A stretch of DNA of 16,210 nucleotides from a virus (lineage: Duplodnaviria; Heunggongvirae; Uroviricota; Caudoviricetes). The translations under genes and the position numbers were made by a program. Below the pieces are notes generated by a model. The model was not told the origin of the DNA. It was given only the letters and a program-made list of their open reading frames with translations, and made no database searches. Shown here one piece after another: positions 7,813-15,544 of the stretch. Each line of letters opens with the position of its first letter. The stretch's first letter is position 1. The stretch lies in IMG/VR virus record IMGVR_UViG_2534681773_000025; one strand, 5' to 3'.

Positions 7813-7968
7813 TTACTCCTCAGGTTCGTAAGCTGTGAAGACAGCGACCTCCGTCTGGCCGGTTCGGATTCGTACCTCGCAGAGGTCTTTCCTCGTTACC
7901 AGTGCCGTCACTATGACGGTTAAACAGATGACGATCAGGGCGATTAACATCGCCTTTTGCTGCTTCAT
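7813..7968 (-). CDS. hokD: Hok/Gef-family type I toxin (small membrane peptide)
   Basis: 51-aa ORF MKQQKAMLIALIVICLTVIVTALVTRKDLCEVRIRTGQTEVAVFTAYEPEE, the canonical Hok sequence; I recall it as matching the Qin hokD/relF product. AAGGAG ribosome-binding site upstream. Confidence 0.9.
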   Translation of the reverse strand: MKQQKAMLIALIVICLTVIVTALVTRKDLCEVRIRTGQTEVAVFTAYEPEE

Positions 7969-8025
7969 AGCCTGCTTCTCCTTGCCTTTCGGCACGTAAG
8001 AGGCTAACCTACGTGTGTAGAGCAT
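7813..8025 (-). CDS. mok: mok-like in-frame leader reading frame covering hok
   Basis: 70-aa ORF starting at ATG 8025 and continuing in frame through hok, as in mok/hok loci where translation is coupled. Confidence 0.5.
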   Translation of the reverse strand: MLYTRRLASYVPKGKEKQAMKQQKAMLIALIVICLTVIVTALVTRKDLCEVRIRTGQTEVAVFTAYEPEE

Positions 8026-8100
8026 AGATATGGCCTCAGATTAATGTTAAGCGTCTTGCCGGACGCGTAATGTTAACTGGGGCTTTTCTCTATCTGCCTT
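8000..8100 (+). ncRNA. Expected position of a Sok-like antisense RNA (not resolved)
   Basis: Inferred from hok/sok architecture: the antisense RNA overlaps the mok translation-initiation region from the opposite strand. A weak promoter-like TTGCCT - 17 nt - TAACCT lies at about 7982..8010; no clean terminator identified. Confidence 0.2.
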
Positions 8101-8118
8101 TGGTGTTGATGCCCGAGG
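8085..8118. repeat. Perfect 10-bp inverted repeat (CTATCTGCCT ... AGGCAGATAG) with a 14-nt loop in the hok leader region
   Basis: Read directly from the sequence; probably a structural element of the hok mRNA leader. Confidence 0.5.
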
Positions 8119-8710
8119 CAGATAGCCTCAAGCACCCGCAGCAATTCTACTTAACTACCGTTACCTCGCCAATATGAAATCAATCAGAAAGGTGATCCAT
8201 AAGAACAACAGCAAGACAATAAATTGCCATTACAGCAGCAATAGCCAGCGCACATTTGAGAACCAGCACCACAACCTCCTGTATTGGACGTACACCAGTC
8301 CTGATAAATATGAGGCTGTCTCGTCAGTGATTCAATACAACTACTGGGTATAGTTTCTATGATTTTGTTCTGTGGAAATGGAAAACAGCAACCAGTCACC
8401 ACCAGCACTTCTTTAAACATGCCAAGTCACACGCAAGCCAACATTATAGTTCCCTTTGAGCGAGCAGATGAAGCTAGCAAAAATATTGATCACTTAGGAT
8501 GCATTACTAACGTTGCTATGTGTTAACGAACAGGGAGTGGGTCATCAGCATAAATATTTATGCAGTAGGTTTCTTTTAGGACTAGATTAATCAAAAACAT
8601 TTAGATAAAATTATAAAATCAAGAAATTGGTGGCAATTAATCTTTAATTGTGCCAGCTGAATTTCGTTATTATAGAAGATTAGCTTTTTTTTGAGTGTTT
8701 GGAGAGTAAA

Positions 8711-9406
8711 ATGTTAGAACCACCAAAGAGTTATAATGAAATGTTGCCTATGCTCCATAAGGCGACTTTTATTACTACATTTATATTTTACCTATCATTA
8801 GTCATTTATGGCTACATGCCATTGGTTGGCATTAATGCCAAGTATATCCCCCCCGTTAAAGACTACGAGGAATTTATTAAATGGATATTAACCTTTGGCA
8901 TATTACCAATTGCATCTTCAGTTTTTTGGTCAGTAATTAGTGGAGCTTTAGATCTACATAATAATGTAGCAAAAATTATTGGAATAAGGAAGATGTGGGA
9001 TAGTCATTTAATTATTAAACCATTAGCAAAAATTGCAGGCGTTACGAGAAAATTAACTACTGATGAATCTCACAAGGTAATGAGTAAACTGTATTACCCA
9101 GAAGTTAAAGAGTTAAAAGACAAACATTACGTTGAACTTTTCTGGAACAAAGTTTATTACTTTTGGGTTTTCTTTGAACATACAGTAATCGCATTTGTTA
9201 CTATTTTAATAATAAGTATCGCCAAATTAACAAATATATTCTCTGTTACTGGCTCTTTAATTAATCTTTGGTTGTGGATTATTTCTCTTGTCGCATTTGA
9301 CTTCCTTATTTTCATAGCATCAGTTAAACCAAGAACAGAAAGCCAAGTAAGACAAATACCTGATAGCAAAATAAAAGAATTCTTTAACAATAACAATATT
9401 TTTTAA
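8711..9406 (+). CDS. Hypothetical integral membrane protein with four predicted transmembrane helices, AT-rich
   Basis: ATG 8711 with GGAGAG ribosome-binding site (the track start at 8699 is TTG). Hydrophobic stretches ATFITTFIFYLSLVIYGYMPLVGI, FIKWILTFGILPIASSVFWSVISGAL, YYFWVFFEHTVIAFVTILIISIAKL and LINLWLWIISLVAFDFLIFIASV. The region is much lower in GC than its flanks. Confidence 0.7.
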   Translation: MLEPPKSYNEMLPMLHKATFITTFIFYLSLVIYGYMPLVGINAKYIPPVKDYEEFIKWILTFGILPIASSVFWSVISGALDLHNNVAKIIGIRKMWDSHLIIKPLAKIAGVTRKLTTDESHKVMSKLYYPEVKELKDKHYVELFWNKVYYFWVFFEHTVIAFVTILIISIAKLTNIFSVTGSLINLWLWIISLVAFDFLIFIASVKPRTESQVRQIPDSKIKEFFNNNNIF

Positions 9407-9418
9407 ACGAGGTTGATT

Positions 9419-10072
9419 TTGAATTACAAAATAAATGGAATAAACATACGTTCAGAAAATGCAGCGAAACCGCACACTATGCCATCTAACTATCTCTGTA
9501 AACAGATTGAAAGCACTAATAAAAATGGCAATGCCCTTGATTTTGGATGTGGAAAACTTAGATATTCAGAACAATTAGTAAATAAATTTGAAACTGTGAC
9601 ATTTTTAGATTCCAGAAGACAACTAGAAAGAGTGCAAATTATCAGAGGTGTACAAACCACGATTCCAGATTACGTGATAAATAACTATAAGAATGCTAAT
9701 ATTGTTTCTTATGAAAATATAGATAAAATAACAAATCATTATGATTTCATACTTTGCGCAAACGTGCTTTCCGCAATTCCATGTGAATCCACAATTCACA
9801 AAGTCCTCAGTGCGATTAGAGAATTATTAAAGAGTGATGGTGAAGCACTGATTGTCAATCAATACAAAAGTTCTTATTTCAAGAGGTACGAGAGCGGTAT
9901 TAAACATTTGCATGGGTATATATACCAAAACTCTCGCAATGCTTTCTACTATGGTTTATTAGATGTGGATACTGTAAGTAAAATATGCTCAGATAATAAT
10001 TTAGAAATAATAAAATCATGGAGCAAAGCAGGTAGTTCATATGTGGTTGTTGGTAAACATATACATATTTAG
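9419..10072 (+). CDS. Class I SAM-dependent methyltransferase-like protein (small-molecule/RNA type, not a DNA methyltransferase)
   Basis: Motif I ALDFGCGKLRY. Start is TTG at 9419 (GAGG 6 nt upstream) or TTG at 9413, 7-13 nt after the membrane protein stop, indicating an operon. No DPPY/NPPY motif. Confidence 0.65.
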   Translation: MNYKINGINIRSENAAKPHTMPSNYLCKQIESTNKNGNALDFGCGKLRYSEQLVNKFETVTFLDSRRQLERVQIIRGVQTTIPDYVINNYKNANIVSYENIDKITNHYDFILCANVLSAIPCESTIHKVLSAIRELLKSDGEALIVNQYKSSYFKRYESGIKHLHGYIYQNSRNAFYYGLLDVDTVSKICSDNNLEIIKSWSKAGSSYVVVGKHIHI

Positions 10073-10386
10073 TTTATTTCAACAAATTATTAGAAAGAGT
10101 GATTTGCTTGTTAATTATTAGCTCGGCAGTGCCGGATCAACATGACCCTGCCACTTAGGCCATTGCCGGTTTACCTACTTTTGTAAGGTTCAGCATGAAG
10201 TTTTTATATACTCTTCCTAATATCAATAGTGATGCTCGCTTATGTTAGCTGCTTCTTGTACATAGTAGCCTTCTCCGACAGTACTGCAATGAGCGGAGAG
10301 TAAAAGTCGATAAACAATAAGGAGGTTCACAATAAATATTTCTCGGTGAAACTTTCAAAGCATTCTCTGTTTTGCTAAATCGACAA

Positions 10387-11286
10387 TTATAAATCAACAA
10401 CATTTAGTGTTATATCAATATTATTTAGCCTTGCAATCTCTGATGAATCACTTGCTATTTTAGCTTTTAATTTATCAATATTAATCATATCTTCATGGCT
10501 TATATAAACCATATCACCTTGGTTAACTTTAGATTTGTTCACTATGGCTTGAATAACAGACAAATCATCCATTACACCTCTCATAAATTTCACCATGCTT
10601 TGATCTTTGAAGTCAGATATCGATTTTGAACGTTGCTTACGTTGAATTGTTCCTTTTGTAATTACTTCATTAATTTCTTTTAAACCAGTGAGCATATCAG
10701 ACAGACTGCCTTCGCAACTCATCCGATGTTTTATTGCATTGCGATTAATAATATTGAGTATAATTTCGAGTGAATCTTTATCACTCCATGGATGTAATGA
10801 TGTATAATCATGATGGCGTCGAATGGCGTCAATCATATCCTGGACCATATCTTCATCTGCTTTATCGCAAAGTTCATTCACGAAATAGCTGGGGTCGATT
10901 ATTTTACAATAACTTGGAGTTAGGTATCTTGAGGCTTTACAAAAACCAAAAATATATAAAGTAGAGTATTTATCTTTCAGACTCTCTCCTATTTCATTTA
11001 TTTTCTCAAAAGATTCGATAGTTTTTTTAATTTTTGCTGGACTTGCATTCGTAGTAACTTGAACTGCTATCATGTTTTTATTATCAGCTAAATCAATGGC
11101 GGGAAAATTAACTTTAATCTGATTCATGTTTACCAGTTCACCCATTTTCAGCGCGCGAAACATAAAGATGGTCAATGACTCAATTATTCTTTCCATGTCA
11201 TGAAAGCCTGCCTGTTTGCGTTGCGCGATATAAAGCTGGAGTAGTGCAATATCACTCTGTAAGTTTCTAATAAGTGGATCAATCAT
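10387..11286 (-). CDS. Hypothetical 299-aa cytoplasmic protein, AT-rich, convergent with the membrane/methyltransferase operon
   Basis: ATG 11286 with AAGGA ribosome-binding site. N-terminal block NFPAIDLADNKNMIAVQVTTNASPAKIKKTIESF resembles PD-(D/E)xK-like or SMEK-type N-terminal modules, but this is unverified. Confidence 0.65.
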   Translation of the reverse strand: MIDPLIRNLQSDIALLQLYIAQRKQAGFHDMERIIESLTIFMFRALKMGELVNMNQIKVNFPAIDLADNKNMIAVQVTTNASPAKIKKTIESFEKINEIGESLKDKYSTLYIFGFCKASRYLTPSYCKIIDPSYFVNELCDKADEDMVQDMIDAIRRHHDYTSLHPWSDKDSLEIILNIINRNAIKHRMSCEGSLSDMLTGLKEINEVITKGTIQRKQRSKSISDFKDQSMVKFMRGVMDDLSVIQAIVNKSKVNQGDMVYISHEDMINIDKLKAKIASDSSEIARLNNIDITLNVVDL

Positions 11287-11322
11287 AGCTAATAATCCTT
11301 TTCAATGAAGCTGGAGGTGTGT

Positions 11323-11337
11323 TTAACTATTAGTTAA
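11323..11337. promoter_or_regulatory. Perfect palindrome TTAACTA-t-TAGTTAA upstream of the 299-aa gene (candidate operator)
   Basis: Read from the sequence, about 35 bp upstream of the start codon. AT-rich context, so chance occurrence is possible. Confidence 0.3.
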
Positions 11338-11547
11338 ATTTCTATTTTTATAGAAACAAGCTTTACAACTTCATCAAAGTTTCTCAAATCCTAATCCACT
11401 TTGCAAATCCACTAACCATGCTGAATGCTTTCTGTTGTTAAACATATCCGCTGCTGGCACCAAGCAGACAAACACACTAACTCTACCCTACTCCACAAAA
11501 GAGCCAATCAATATCTGAACTAATAAACTTTAATCTCATCACTTCAA

Positions 11548-11552
11548 TAAAT
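11548..11552. repeat. IS2 target-site duplication, left copy (TAAAT)
   Basis: Identical 5-bp TAAAT directly flanks both ends of the IS2 element (second copy at 12884..12888). Confidence 0.85.
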
Positions 11553-11563
11553 TGGATTTGCCC

Positions 11564-12469
11564 CTATATTTCCAGACATCTGTTATCACTTAACCCATTA
11601 CAAGCCCGCTGCCGCAGATATTCCCGTGGCGAGCGATAACCCAGCGCACTATGCGGATGCCATTCGTTATAATGCTCGAACGCCTCTGCAAGGTTCTTTG
11701 CTGCCGTTAACCCGTCTGGTTTGGGCATGATACTGATGTAGTCACGCTTTATCGTTTTCACGAAGCTCTCTGCTATTCCGTTACTCTCCGGACTCCGCAC
11801 CGCCGTGTTCTTCGGTTCAAGTCCCAACATCCGGGCGAACTGGCGTGTTTCATTAGCCCGGTAGCATGAACCATTATCCGTCAGCCACTCCACTGGAGAC
11901 GACGGAAGATCGTTGCCGAAGCGGCGTTCCACCGCTCCCAGCATGACGTCCTGTACTGTTTCACTGTTGAAGCCGCCGGTAGTGACCGCCCAGTGCAGTG
12001 CCTCACGATCACAGCAGTCCAGCGCGAACGTGACACGCAGTCTCTCTCCGTTATCACAGCAGAACTCGAACCCGTCAGAGCACCATCGCTGATTGCTTTC
12101 TTTCACGGCCACTCTGCCTGTATGTGCCCGTTTCGATGGCGGTACAGCAGGTTTTCGCTCAAGCAACAGCGCATTCTGGCGCATGATCCGGTAAACACGT
12201 TTGGCATTGATCGCAGGCATACCATCAAGTTCTGCCTGTCTGCGAAGCAGCGCCCATACCCGACGATAACCATACGTGGGCAGCTCTCCGATAACATGGT
12301 GTATACGGAGAAGCACATCCGTATCATCAGTGTGACGACTGCGGCGGCCATCCATCCAGTCATCGGTTCGTCTGAGAATGACGTGCAACTGCGCACGCGA
12401 CACCCGGAGACAACGGCTGACTAAGCTTACTCCCCATCCCCGGGCAATAAGGGCGCGTGCGCTATCCAC
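11564..12469 (-). CDS. insD: IS2 transposase OrfB (InsD); expressed as an OrfAB fusion by -1 frameshift
   Basis: 301-aa [33 protein letters not shown]... with a DDE transposase/integrase core. Confidence 0.9.
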
Positions 12470-12792
12470 TTTTTTGCCCGTCCATATTCAACGGCTTCTT
12501 TGAGGAGTTCATTTTCCATCGTTTTCTTGCCGAGCAGGCGCTGGAGTTCTTTAATCTGCTTCATGGCGGCAGCAAGTTCAGAGGCAGGAACAACCTGTTC
12601 TCCGGCGGCGACAGCAGTAAGACTTCCTTCCTGGTATTGCTTACGCCAGAGAAATAACTGGCTGGCTGCTACACCATGTTGCCGGGCAACGAGGGAGACC
12701 GTCATCCCCGGTTCAAAGCTCTGCTGAACAATTGCGATCTTTTCCTGTGTGGTACGCCGTCTGCGTTTCTCCGGCCCTAAGACATCAATCAT
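12427..12792 (-). CDS. insC: IS2 OrfA (InsC) HTH regulator/transposase N-terminal part
   Basis: 121 aa from ATG 12792 ([26 protein letters not shown]...). The 136-aa track ORF starts further upstream inside the inverted repeat. Confidence 0.9.
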
Positions 12793-12880
12793 CTGTTCTC
12801 CAATGACTAGTCTAAAAACTAGTATTAAGACTATCACTTATTTAAGTGATACTGGTTGTCTGGAGATTCAGGGGGCCAGT

Positions 12881-13297
12881 CTATAAATATCGAGCATTTC
12901 CCTGATAGAATGCTAGTATGCGCTGCATAACTTCACTCTTCCGGCACTCGCGACAGATTATGTTCTGACGCCTGTCGTAGCGACGTATTTCTCCGTCAGG
13001 TAATGACCAGATAAGGTCCGGATCAACCGCAGATGGTTCCTTCAGCTTTGCCCTTGAGAGCTTTTTACGGGCATTTTGCCAGTCCTTACGCGCCTGTTCA
13101 GACGGGAATAACCCGTAACCAGAGTTGTATACATCGCCGCTGGCAACCAGCTCTCTTGCGAGAACGCTCATCAGATATCTTGTCGCACCTGTCTTGACTT
13201 CCAGTTGCCGTAACGTCTCACGCCCACTCCGGCGTACGAGTTCAACAACCTGCCCTTTAATTTTTTCCCGCTCTTCTTGTGTAAAAACTTTTGCCAC
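12881..13297 (-). CDS. Hypothetical 138-aa protein downstream of the replication initiator; its stop codon is supplied by the IS2 end
   Basis: GTG start with AGGAGG ribosome-binding site. The present stop TAG is the terminal CTA of IS2. The reconstructed pre-insertion sequence would end ...RYLLK-stop, so the insertion trims two residues. Confidence 0.6.
12884..12888. repeat. IS2 target-site duplication, right copy (TAAAT)
   Basis: Matches 11548..11552. Confidence 0.85.
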
Positions 13298-13337
13298 AAG
13301 CCCTCCTGAAAATTACCTCATGACCAGAAATTAACAC

Positions 13338-14303
13338 TTACCCCCTGAAGCCCGGCGGAATTTCGGTATCCGGCTCAGAAATATGATTCACACAACGCTG
13401 TACAGACGAACGCCCCAGGCGGATAACCAGTTCATCCCATTTTTCGCGAAGCTTTGACGGACTCATGATATTTTTTACCCAGAATGGATCCCGCTGCACC
13501 CGACCAAACATTTCACAAATTTGTCTGTGAGTTCTGCCATCCAGCATCCGCATTGTGCGCACGTCGTTGGCCCATGCGGTCCAGTTGGGTTCTTTCGGTC
13601 GCGAAATCTCGCCATCATCGCTGGCGGCCTGCTCGTAAAGACTCACGATTCGCCCCCAGATCCACTGCGCACACGCCAAATCTTCCTGGCTGCCCCACTG
13701 GCGTTTTTTCGCACTGAACACAACCGCGTCAGGGTGTCGGGTTAAAAAATCCTGTTCAACCGTCTGCGGGTCCGGTTGCGAAGCTTCCGGACGAGAAGTC
13801 TTTTTATTCTCTGTAGTAATCTCTGTTGTATTCTCTGTAAGATCATCAGGCCATTTTGACCCGATGACATTGAGTCGTTTTGAACCAATGGAGCGTTTCA
13901 TTTTGACCTCTTCCATCGTGTCATTTTGACCTGATGGAGCGGCGCATTTTAAACCGATGGATTCGCTCAATTTGCCACCATCTAAAAGCTCGCTCCCGTA
14001 GTTGATCGTGTAGAAATTGGTCATATCGCGCTTTGATTTATTGAGCTTTTCACAACGCAAAAGCCCCAGCGTTTTCAGACTTGCAAACGCGCGCTTTAAC
14101 GTTGACTCTGACCAGAATGGGAACTGTTCCAGCCATTGTTCCGTTGTGTTATAAATCCAGCGAACACCATCACATTCCATGCCGGAGTTGGTATCTCTCA
14201 ACCAGTAGTGCAGTTGTTGCAAAACAATGGCTTCGTTTAAGCCAATTTTCATTGCCAGCTGCGTGTTTATAACCAGTGGGCGTTCAGCAAAAAGAAGACT
14301 CAT
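13338..14303 (-). CDS. Phage replication initiator (lambda O-like replisome organiser) with ori iterons inside the gene
   Basis: The track ORF starts at TTG 14357; the likely start is ATG 14303. N-terminal winged-helix-like region (...WSESTLKRAFASLKTLGLLRCEKL...), a central repeat-encoding linker (IGSK repeats, TENTTEITTENKK) and a conserved-looking C-terminal domain. Family assignment is by architecture, not by search. Confidence 0.65.
   Translation of the reverse strand: MSLLFAERPLVINTQLAMKIGLNEAIVLQQLHYWLRDTNSGMECDGVRWIYNTTEQWLEQFPFWSESTLKRAFASLKTLGLLRCEKLNKSKRDMTNFYTINYGSELLDGGKLSESIGLKCAAPSGQNDTMEEVKMKRSIGSKRLNVIGSKWPDDLTENTTEITTENKKTSRPEASQPDPQTVEQDFLTRHPDAVVFSAKKRQWGSQEDLACAQWIWGRIVSLYEQAASDDGEISRPKEPNWTAWANDVRTMRMLDGRTHRQICEMFGRVQRDPFWVKNIMSPSKLREKWDELVIRLGRSSVQRCVNHISEPDTEIPPGFRG
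13851..13990. repeat. Origin-like iteron array (about six ~23-bp repeats, core TTTTGACC-n-GATGGA) next to an AT-rich stretch (13800..13850)
   Basis: Repeats read from the sequence: cattttgacccgatgaca, gttttgaaccaatggag, attttgacctcttccatcg, attttgacctgatggag, attttaaaccgatggat, aatttgccaccatct. Layout resembles lambda ori inside O. Confidence 0.6.
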
Positions 14304-14805
14304 AATTCCATCCAGCTTTTTGTTGGTATTGCTGTCGATACGCAAGCTTGAAAGCAATTGCTTTTTCTATAAGTTCGTCAGTTTCACGATCTACAACGGC
14401 AGGATCTGCAAAAAGCAGTCCGGATTCCACCACATCGCCATATTCTTTATTTAACCCGGCGATCATGTACGTAATACTTTTTCCATCACTGATCTCACGA
14501 TACAACCTGAAATCACTAATCCGGATAGCCTCCATAATCGCAGGCACTAGCGCCGTGAACTTTTCACGCTTATCCCTGGTGTCGATAGCCTTCCAGCGTT
14601 CGAATATCTTCACTCGATTAACGCCAAGCGCTCGCTGATCAACCGCGCCACCTTCATCTGTGACACGCTGAACATCGATGTTCGGGCGCTCTTTCAAAGC
14701 CCAGAATGCTTCAGTGATTAATATCGTCGCCTGCTCCTGTGTCATTCCTGGTCGACATATCCAGGCATCCAGAGCCTCACGAGCCTGTTCAGGAGTGATT
14801 TTCAT
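14284..14805 (-). CDS. Hypothetical 173-aa protein in the cII position (between the cro-like dicC and the replication gene); possibly YdaT-like
   Basis: ATG 14805 overlaps the dicC 3' end by 17 bp and its stop overlaps the O-like start. The YdaT-like suggestion is by position only. Confidence 0.55.
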   Translation of the reverse strand: MKITPEQAREALDAWICRPGMTQEQATILITEAFWALKERPNIDVQRVTDEGGAVDQRALGVNRVKIFERWKAIDTRDKREKFTALVPAIMEAIRISDFRLYREISDGKSITYMIAGLNKEYGDVVESGLLFADPAVVDRETDELIEKAIAFKLAYRQQYQQKAGWNYESSFC

Positions 14806-15019
14806 TGTTCAACCGCCCCGCCCGCTTCGTCTTACGATATTCATCATAAACTTTGGGATCATACTGAAGCTCCCCGCCAGATGCCTCCTGTAGACGCATC
14901 GCGCGACCTTCGGGAACTAAATCCCCTTTCCAGCTATAAAGCGAAGCCAAACGAATACCTGCTGCTTGTGCAAGTTTTGTTTTTGAACCGAAATACAAAA
15001 GAGCGTCAGTTTTAAGCAT
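14789..15019 (-). CDS. dicC: DicC, Cro-like regulator of the Qin immunity region
   Basis: 76 aa MLKTDALLYFGSKTKLAQAAGIRLASLYSWKGDLVPEGRAMRLQEASGGELQYDPKVYDEYRKTKRAGRLNNENHS, divergent from dicA. Confidence 0.85.
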   Translation of the reverse strand: MLKTDALLYFGSKTKLAQAAGIRLASLYSWKGDLVPEGRAMRLQEASGGELQYDPKVYDEYRKTKRAGRLNNENHS

Positions 15020-15042
15020 TTAAAACACCTTTATTGTTAGTC

Positions 15043-15096
15043 ATAACTAACAAAATAGATGTTAACAAAAACATAGTCAATACGATTTAGCATTAG
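15043..15096. promoter_or_regulatory. dicA/dicC divergent promoter region with two operator-like palindromes
   Basis: TTGTTAGT-cata-ACTAACAA (15043..15062) and TTAGC-atta-GCTAA (about 15083..15096) share the half-site TTAG(C/T). Confidence 0.5.
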
Positions 15097-15102
15097 CTAA
15101 CT

Positions 15103-15510
15103 ATGGAAACAAAAAATTTAACTATCGGCGAACGCATTAGGTATCGTCGGAAAAACCTCAAACACACCCAAAGGTCTCTTGCTAAAGCCCTGAAAATCTC
15201 CCATGTGTCTGTATCACAATGGGAACGGGATGATAGTGAACCTACAGGGAAGAACCTTTTTGCCCTCAGCAAAGTATTGCAATGCTCACCAACATGGATT
15301 CTATTTGGCGATGAAGACAAGCAACCAACACCACCTGTTGAGAAGCCAGTTGCCTTATCCCCCAAAGAACTAGAGCTCCTTGAGCTGTTTAATGCACTGC
15401 CAGAATCAGAACAGGATACCCAGCTCGCCGAAATGCGAGCTCGAGTAAAAAACTTCAATAAACTCTTTGAAGAATTACTAAAAGCCCGTCAGCGGACAAA
15501 TAAAAGATAA
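15103..15510 (+). CDS. dicA: DicA, cI-like HTH repressor of the dicB cell-division-inhibition operon
   Basis: 135 aa METKNLTIGERIRYRRKNLKHTQRSLAKALKISHVSVSQWERDDSEPTGKNLFALSKVLQCSPTWILFGDEDKQ..., matching E. coli DicA as I remember it. Confidence 0.92.
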   Translation: METKNLTIGERIRYRRKNLKHTQRSLAKALKISHVSVSQWERDDSEPTGKNLFALSKVLQCSPTWILFGDEDKQPTPPVEKPVALSPKELELLELFNALPESEQDTQLAEMRARVKNFNKLFEELLKARQRTNKR

Positions 15511-15544
15511 CATCATCAATGAGTTATCTTTTACCACATCAATC

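Follow-up and report, generated by a model that had tools for sequence, protein, structure and literature searches.

The genes ymfE and ymfD of the e14 prophage of Escherichia coli K-12 are long-standing y-genes without known function. A ymfD knockout showed normal growth and YmfD is not the methyltransferase that forms N6-methyladenosine (m6A) in mRNA (PMC12096079), and deletion of ymfD reduced early biofilm (PMC3105296). Otherwise both genes appear in gene lists, and they showed no SOS induction in K-12. SMEK is a recognized effector nuclease domain of short prokaryotic Argonaute (pAgo) and short Lamassu systems (PMC10810196, PMC12205087, PMC12663957). We analyzed a 16,210-nucleotide stretch of viral DNA (IMG/VR virus record IMGVR_UViG_2534681773_000025; hereafter the window) in which an AT-rich island encodes homologs of YmfE and YmfD and, convergent with them, a protein with a SMEK domain. 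Comparison with other loci revealed that the island is made up of two autonomous mobile modules, the ymfE-ymfD pair and the SMEK gene, and not of one obligate three-gene system; the K-12 genes ymfE and ymfD are one allele of a strictly coupled, self-mobilizing two-gene module, which recurs in known defense hotspots of prophages, plasmids, integrons, and genomic islands in several phyla.

The initial annotation of the island had listed three proteins that it could not place in a named family. All three open reading frames (ORFs) are present at the sizes it gave (231, 217, and 299 residues), but our searches assigned each of them. The membrane protein matched K-12 e14 YmfE (b1138) with 60% identity over 230 residues (E=2e-108), and K-12 YmfE scored 2.6e-119 against a profile of the membrane-protein family; the methyltransferase matched K-12 e14 YmfD (b1137) with 68% identity (E=2e-113), one of its database homologs being named ymfD. 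The 299-residue protein carries an N-terminal SMEK domain, with scores well above the family cut-offs (79.9 bits against 27 for Pfam PF21941, and 105.1 bits against 30 for NCBIfam NF033859). RefSeq annotates the trio as 'hypothetical protein', 'class I SAM-dependent methyltransferase', and 'SMEK domain-containing protein', where SAM is S-adenosylmethionine. On the basis of these matches module 1 (8547-10155) is identified as an allele of the ymfE-ymfD operon of K-12 e14, and module 2 (10156-11469) as a single gene in which a SMEK nuclease domain is fused to a helical C-terminal domain. The island is therefore not new as sequence, being a new allele of the named, uncharacterized YmfE, YmfD, and SMEK families, and it is the system-level reading that is a candidate; as K-12 YmfE and YmfD are themselves uncharacterized, family membership gives no function.

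To describe the contexts of the pair we surveyed sampled loci, so that the survey is not a statistical test of enrichment. When all retrieved loci were scanned with a hidden Markov model (HMM), each YmfE relative proved to have a YmfD relative as its immediate neighbor, and the pairing was kept in Vibrio, Pseudomonas, and Microbulbifer at methyltransferase identities of 41-46%. A genome scan with remote relatives of the membrane protein gave 16 loci, seven of which have an adjacent YmfD-family methyltransferase (E-values of 1e-42 to 1e-94); these seven are from Planctomycetota, a deltaproteobacterium, Paenibacillus, Colwellia, and Hellea, and the reach of the pair spans Gamma-, Alpha-, and Deltaproteobacteria, Planctomycetota, and Firmicutes. 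Gene order in the remote loci is either that of the window, with the transmembrane (TM) protein gene preceding the methyltransferase gene, or the reverse, and the strictness with which the two genes stay together, in either order, speaks for a complex, be it physical or functional. Serine recombinases lie on the flanks of the Paenibacillus and Colwellia pairs.

Closer relatives of the pair occupy a wide range of mobile elements. In e14 the two genes abut in the same order and adjoin the abortive-infection gene lit, and in P2-like prophages of Enterobacter asburiae and Providencia rettgeri the pair follows ogr, a site that is a P2 defense hotspot. It lies after the O/P replication genes in a lambdoid prophage of E. 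hormaechei, the lambdoid contexts being either after O/P or after RepO/DnaB; directly after Hachiman HamA and its helicase in Pseudomonas; together with a relaxase and a reverse transcriptase on a metagenomic element; and next to a DUF4145 protein and a recombinase on an IncHI2A plasmid. In Vibrio cholerae (locus L021) attC (VCR) repeats at 4160-4308 and 5647-5795 bracket exactly these two genes, which makes YmfE and YmfD a single integron cassette. No SMEK gene accompanies the pair in the P2-like prophages, other lambdoid prophages, e14, the relaxase and reverse transcriptase element, Pseudomonas, V. cholerae, Microbulbifer, or the distant phyla. Two further observations were made in these loci. 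Two cassettes downstream of the V. cholerae pair the integron array holds about 7-9 tandem copies of a 29-nt unit, GTAACGTGTTTATGTTACTTTTTCTAGTA (L021 7191-7451), and in the E. asburiae prophage (L002) a gene of 300 residues (9058-9960, minus strand) is convergent with the pair in the position that SMEK has in the window, and may be another hotspot cargo gene. We rejected this gene as a SMEK relative, as it is unrelated and gave a weak match to nucleoside 2-deoxyribosyltransferases (E=0.005).

The SMEK gene is equally independent. Homologs with 45-79% identity stand apart from the pair in six contexts or more, among them integrase islands, a defense island in which the homolog lies between a Lamassu-like operon and AAA_15/AAA_21 genes (as a separate gene of 301 residues), and a position beside a SLATT_5 protein, and in V. 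parahaemolyticus the SMEK gene is the only one between its attC repeats. The two genes that stand beside a Pseudomonas SMEK homolog, encoding 219 residues and 232 residues (SLATT_5), were considered as a mirrored trio and found to be unrelated. The complete block was found with the same end-points, and collinear with the window, on the IncHI2A plasmid pK820-1 of Citrobacter koseri (L027, 88% identity) and in a lambdoid prophage of E. coli ECO21 (L028, 83%). Among 5426 complete E. coli genomes the block was matched in 153, the pair in 434 (146 with this allele, five with an allele of ~87%, and 283 with the e14 allele), and SMEK in 152; this pair allele and SMEK each occur at 99% identity or more in 146. 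These collinear blocks, together with a pair-only locus whose homology ends at 10155, indicate that the modules often travel together among Enterobacterales, through either synergy or hotspot linkage. Where the initial annotation had described one three-gene unit, we find the pair without SMEK in most of its contexts and SMEK alone in most of its own; from this, from the separate integron cassettes, and from the separate 5' regions, it follows that the three genes are not one obligate unit. All three gave Ka/Ks values (ratios of nonsynonymous to synonymous substitution rates) of 0.09-0.35 over Ks of up to more than 2, and so have been kept by purifying selection.

The YmfE-like protein has four hydrophobic helices and a K/R-rich central loop of 65 residues by hydropathy and charge analysis, and the four-helix membrane protein of the initial annotation also holds in an AlphaFold2 model (predicted local distance difference test score, pLDDT, 87; predicted template modeling score, pTM, 0.81). 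The predicted topology is N-in/C-in, which would place the helical loop in the cytoplasm. Across the alignments H83, R93, Y129, and W152 are invariant and E156 nearly so. The protein matched no model in Pfam (the TehA family included), NCBIfam, PADLOC, or PHROGs, and its structural model gave no significant fold match in the PDB or among viral structures; the six SLATT models of Pfam (SLATT_1-6) gave no match at E≤1 for the window protein and none at E≤0.1 for its remote relatives, nor did the YmfE profile cross-match the SLATT_5 protein. A word-indexed search gave 39 clusters of membrane-protein relatives and an exhaustive profile search 230 at E≤1e-3. The relatives found by profile are ~230 residues long and have in common a juxtamembrane signature, KLHDR[ILV]SDxxGIRxRFDxxxILxP, together with FYxY and WxW[FY]WxxxE. 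In one remote relative, the single cluster P0386 (395 residues), a C-terminal TIR domain (TIR_2, 2e-20) is fused to the TM module; this agrees with the predicted C-in topology and suggests that an enzymatic effector can use the TM module as its anchor or sensor. Solitary YmfE-like genes were also seen in Pirellulales, other Planctomycetota, and Terriglobia (L069, L070, L072-L075, L077, L078), beside genes for a cyclase, a DUF4252 protein, a VWA protein, and a GntP permease and with no methyltransferase.

Upstream of the ymfE-like gene, the conserved region carries a putative promoter-like ATTATA element and a GGAGAG Shine-Dalgarno sequence, and homology begins at 8545/8547 in L027, L028, and the pair-only locus L011. 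A perfect 16-bp palindrome, GCATAAATATTTATGC, occupies 8547-8562, exactly at this left boundary. As a candidate operator it was rejected, being degenerate or not kept in homologous loci, and since it is degenerate in other alleles it is probably not a conserved site. Promoter and terminator scans returned sites no more numerous than in shuffled sequence.

The methyltransferase gene starts with TTG, 12 nt after the ymfE-like gene, and its GAGG Shine-Dalgarno sequence (9409-9412) directly follows the ymfE-like stop codon (9404-9406); the translational coupling that the initial annotation had proposed is thus borne out, and the pair is a conserved, linked one. The protein scored above the Pfam cut-offs of Methyltransf_12 (35 bits against 30) and Methyltransf_23 (34.2 against 27), motif I (LDFGCG; D43, G45, G47) and D66 are invariant, and the enzyme apparently is catalytically intact, as judged from these residues. 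Invariant segments outside the SAM core are SENAAKPH...S near the N-terminus, NVLSAIPC, and NQxxSSYFK...G...GY...YYG. A regular-expression scan of the 217 residues found none of the DNA-methyltransferase motifs (DPPY/NPPY, i.e., (D/N/S)PP(Y/F/W), PCQ, and ENV), and the earlier description of a class I SAM motif without such motifs is therefore correct. A single-sequence search against the PDB found nothing, and a profile search against solved structures gave weak generic matches to PKMT2, TehB, and UbiG (E-values of 0.002-0.03). The Pfam TehB model was matched just above its cut-off (24.4 bits against 20.4) over the SAM-binding core only, and TehB matches also appear on many homologs; the NCBIfam TehB equivalog models were not reached (28-29 bits against cut-offs of 218 and 303). 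In PADLOC the methyltransferase matched mad2 weakly (9.7e-5), again over the SAM core only.

The SMEK protein has a Mrr-like nuclease domain of putative PD-(D/E)xK type at residues ~1-130, which also matched a domain deposited as 'Mrr domain', and a helical C-terminal domain at ~145-290. Its core motif is D65...Q76-x-T78 with K85 downstream, as against D...(Q/E)xK in Mrr-like enzymes. A short-pAgo-type profile of PADLOC was matched over positions 9-143 of 463 only, that is, over the nuclease domain. Neither an APAZ region nor a short Argonaute gene, which together would mark a SPARDA-type system, was found in the window, and neither were a LmuA C-terminal domain or LmuB and LmuC genes. An ORF of Argonaute size is well above 400 residues; as the largest ORF of the window encodes 368, a partner gene of the Argonaute or SMC-like kind would not fit. 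The region upstream of the SMEK gene is conserved in SMEK loci of both kinds, those with the trio and those with SMEK alone. The initial annotation had pointed to a palindrome in front of the gene, and two are present at ~11352-11318 (TTTCTATAAAAATAGAAA and TTTAACTAATAGTTAAA). They are specific to this allele and are not kept in the homologous upstream regions; we rejected them as operators and, as unconserved elements of AT-rich DNA, they are probably due to chance.

We favor the view that the island holds two autonomous mobile cargo modules in a variable site, both of them most likely anti-phage or anti-mobile-element conflict genes, and we hold it with belief and doubt about evenly balanced. 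A defense role for the modules is what we infer from their contexts, which support it well: established defense genes among those sampled are lit, Hachiman, the Lamassu-like genes and, in the window itself, RosmerTA, and the genomic contexts are those of defense and moron hotspots, in line with the likeness to defense cassettes that the initial annotation had noted in this architecture. The pair would be a membrane-bound two-component complex: bound to the helical, K/R-rich cytoplasmic domain of YmfE, YmfD would methylate a conserved substrate, probably a membrane-proximal one or a small molecule. The methyltransferase would then act at, or be controlled by, the cytoplasmic domain of YmfE, with YmfE as membrane anchor or sensor or else as the membrane component that executes the response, roughly on the pattern of RexA/RexB; in a Rex-like variant the enzyme would sense and the membrane protein execute. 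The conservation of YmfD across phyla points to conserved chemistry rather than to a fast-evolving phage sensor. SMEK would act on its own as a nuclease, with cleavage controlled or targeted by the C-terminal domain, either as a type IV-like enzyme or as a trigger-activated effector. The physical complex, the substrate, and the effector partner are, like the defense role, proposals that we infer here. As a bolder version of this proposal, which we advance tentatively and with doubt outweighing belief, YmfE-YmfD could be an unrecognized, widespread two-component anti-phage or anti-mobile-element system, in which a new 4-TM superfamily (signature KLHDRxSDxxGIRxxFD...WxWFWxxxE) would team up with a methyltransferase of its own and methyl transfer to a non-DNA target at the inner membrane would be the immune chemistry, with SMEK as a second, single-gene nuclease defense.

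Several results weigh against a conflict role. PADLOC 2.0 gave no system-level match and no full-length match to any of the three proteins, the membrane protein having no match at all, and the membrane protein was not found in 50,697 sequenced phage genomes. Our literature searches (including ymfD/ymfE, the RefSeq accessions, and SMEK defense) found no functional study of these genes and no defense role, and no study that ties phage resistance to ymfED or to this SMEK protein; K-12 itself has the ymfED pair, and the only phenotype that the papers found give for it is the reduction of early biofilm on deletion of ymfD. Nine Pirellulales-type relatives of the membrane protein stand solo among housekeeping genes, so that the YmfE superfamily is not confined to conflict systems and its solo form is possibly a non-conflict one. 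The TIR fusion is one cluster, and the conservation of YmfD fits a chemistry that could equally be metabolic.

This last point bears on the alternative that the pair is a non-defense accessory, a TehA/TehB-like moron for small-molecule or lipid methylation (detoxification, export, or membrane modification), with SMEK as an unrelated neighbor. An operon of a membrane protein and a methyltransferase mirrors tehAB, and integron cassettes and prophage morons also carry non-defense traits. The marginal Pfam TehB match and its recurrence on many homologs, the generic small-molecule and protein methyltransferases (PKMT2, TehB, UbiG) that are the nearest solved relatives, the strong conservation of YmfD across phyla, and the solo relatives in housekeeping contexts in Planctomycetes are all consistent with it. 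We nevertheless consider it unlikely, because the TehB equivalog models are far from their cut-offs and the Pfam match covers the SAM core only, because YmfE has four TM helices and matches no Pfam TehA model (TehA has 10 TM helices), and because defense hotspots and genes (lit, Hachiman, RosmerTA, the site after ogr) dominate the contexts and a relative is fused to TIR. The picture drawn by the initial annotation, an obligate three-component defense system of membrane protein, methyltransferase, and SMEK, is quite improbable. Its support comes from the recurrence of all three genes as a single collinear 2.9-kb block, with shared end-points, in the Qin-like prophage, the ECO21 prophage, and pK820-1; from several IMG/VR alleles of the trio with 84-91% identity; from the persistence of the trio despite Ks of 0.2-0.66; and from the E. 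coli genomes, where 151 of the 153 that match the island have at least 80% of it in one place. Against this stand the many contexts of the pair without SMEK and the six or more of SMEK without the pair, the attC repeats that bound each module as a cassette of its own, and the conserved 5' region that each module possesses.

A methyltransferase gene and a gene for a PD-(D/E)xK-type nuclease, convergent in one mobile block, could also be read as a restriction-modification-like pair, in which the methyltransferase protects against the SMEK nuclease. We rejected this reading, which is highly improbable, on motifs and gene distribution: YmfD lacks the DPPY/NPPY and PCQ/ENV motifs and with 217 residues would leave little room for a target-recognition domain, it always pairs with a membrane protein instead, and SMEK is widespread without an adjacent methyltransferase, which would be lethal for a classical restriction enzyme. 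Just as hard to credit is decaying, non-functional AT-rich foreign DNA that is silenced in a cryptic prophage. DNA silenced by H-NS is typically low in GC (guanine plus cytosine), in some of the E. coli copies IS1 elements have inserted or the SMEK ORF is split, and ymfD and ymfE show no SOS induction in K-12. The window and most other copies, however, have all three ORFs intact, many positions of the proteins do not vary between phyla, the modules have been mobilized repeatedly, and the Ka/Ks values given above exclude this reading. The features of the island and of its borders are listed in Table 1.

Table 1. Features of the island and its borders in the 16,210-nucleotide window.
Feature	Coordinates	Strand	Basis
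Left border of the cargo site: hokD-type toxin gene with sok antisense RNA	7813..8137	-	Pfam HOK_GEF 2.9e-23; Rfam sok 114 bits
AT-rich composite mobile block (pair module and SMEK module)	8545..11469		Collinear alignments, GC
5' region of the ymfE-like operon, conserved	8547..8710	+	Alignment across enterobacterial alleles in different replicons
YmfE-like inner-membrane protein, 231 residues, 4 TM	8711..9406	+	60% identity to K-12 YmfE
YmfD-like class I SAM-dependent methyltransferase, 217 residues	9419..10072	+	68% identity to K-12 YmfD; Pfam
3' tail of the pair module	10073..10155	+	Homology with pair-only locus L011 spans 8547-10155 and ends there
Stand-alone SMEK-domain protein, 299 residues	10387..11286	-	SMEK Pfam/NCBIfam matches
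5' region of the SMEK gene, conserved	11287..11469	-	Kept in both trio and solo SMEK loci
IS2	11553..12883	-	Ends TGGATTTGCCCC and GGGGGCCAGTCTA; 5-bp TAAAT target duplication

The block (8545-11469) has a GC content of 32.4%, compared with 52.1% for positions 1-5400 and 46.7% for 12884-16210, and in sliding windows GC ranged from 0.29 to 0.36 over ~8400-11500 as against 0.42-0.58 in the rest of the window. To its left are a Hok-family gene and a sok RNA (Rfam RF01794, 7963-8137), the gene being annotated as hokD by RefSeq in E. coli strain C7; to its right, beyond IS2, are a DUF977 gene, a 339-residue ORF without family match, YdaT, and DicC/DicA-type genes. The GC profile and these flanking genes confirm the AT-rich island between a hok locus and the replication module that the initial annotation had outlined. 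Its right edge had been drawn at 11552, where IS2 starts; the conserved mobile block stops at ~11469. The element at 11553-12883 is identified as IS2 from its terminal sequence and from its InsC and InsD proteins; it cuts the last codons of the DUF977 gene, and strain C7 is without it. In Qin of K-12 the genes hokD-relE-relB lie at exactly the position of the island, which confirms the variable-cargo site with relBE in K-12 that had been suggested earlier, and gene order identifies the site as the hokD-to-replication variable-cargo site of a Qin-like lambdoid prophage.

The same prophage holds further cargo. About 1 kb from the YmfE-YmfD pair we found a RosmerTA-type toxin-antitoxin defense pair (5913-7647, minus strand; genes at 6997-7647 and 5913-7019), composed of a 216-residue protein similar to PADLOC RmrT (4.6e-25) and a 368-residue protein with a helix-turn-helix and an ImmA/IrrE peptidase domain, similar to RmrA (6e-105). 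The region 5908-7723 has no counterpart in E. coli C7, which shares the rest of the prophage, and so looks like a separate cargo insertion beside hok; its absence there adds support to the variable nature of this site. Between sok and the island, an ORF for a cysteine-rich protein of 78 residues (CCCNGNLLSCCCSYG...; 8184-8420, minus strand) has no Pfam match and no RefSeq annotation and may be spurious. No nuclease adjoins a 352-residue N6/N4 DNA methyltransferase (1533-2591, minus strand; Pfam N6_N4_Mtase, 6e-44; DPPY motif), which looks like an orphan enzyme of the late region of the prophage; next to its gene are three genes for tRNAs (Arg-tct, Arg-tcg, and Met-cat; 1243-1492).

If the pair does serve in defense, bacterial immunity would gain a chemistry of non-DNA methyl transfer and a new superfamily of membrane proteins; if not, the pair would still define a widespread mobile module for membrane methylation. 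The K-12 copy in e14 makes the hypothesis easily tested. The SMEK gene is a candidate single-gene nuclease defense with relatives among the effector domains of short Argonaute and Lamassu systems.

Among known loci the e14 pair is the closest, sharing with the window the homology given above, gene order, gene sizes, tight coupling, and residence at a prophage cargo site; the window allele differs in having 69% DNA identity to it, in lying in another prophage and at another site, and in having SMEK alongside. The RexA/RexB genes of lambda and gp30/gp31 of mycobacteriophage Sbash are likewise prophage two-gene modules at a cargo site that pair a 4-TM inner-membrane protein with a cytoplasmic partner, but the partner here is a SAM methyltransferase and not a DNA-binding sensor, and no sequence or fold relationship was found, the YmfE model having no significant match in the PDB or among viral structures and Rex sequences not having been compared directly. 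TehA/TehB also combine a membrane protein with a small class I SAM methyltransferase, from which the pair departs in the failed TehB equivalogs and in a membrane partner that has no Pfam TehA match and four TM helices instead of 10. SLATT modules resemble YmfE as small multi-TM modules on mobile elements, once fused to TIR, whereas YmfE has no SLATT Pfam match and has the signature KLHDRxSDxxGIRxxFD. With the SMEK-APAZ proteins of short pAgo (SPARDA-type) systems and the SMEK-type LmuA of short Lamassu, the 299-residue protein has the N-terminal SMEK/Mrr-like nuclease domain in common; it differs in lacking an APAZ or LmuA C-terminal region, its C-terminal 150 residues forming a different helical domain, and in being a single-gene cassette. 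Finally, as with type IV Mrr-like enzymes, it is encoded by a solitary gene, for a putative PD-(D/E)xK-family nuclease, in defense islands without a cognate methyltransferase, in which, however, the domain order is reversed, with the nuclease domain N-terminal and a motif of D65...Q76-x-T78 followed by K85.

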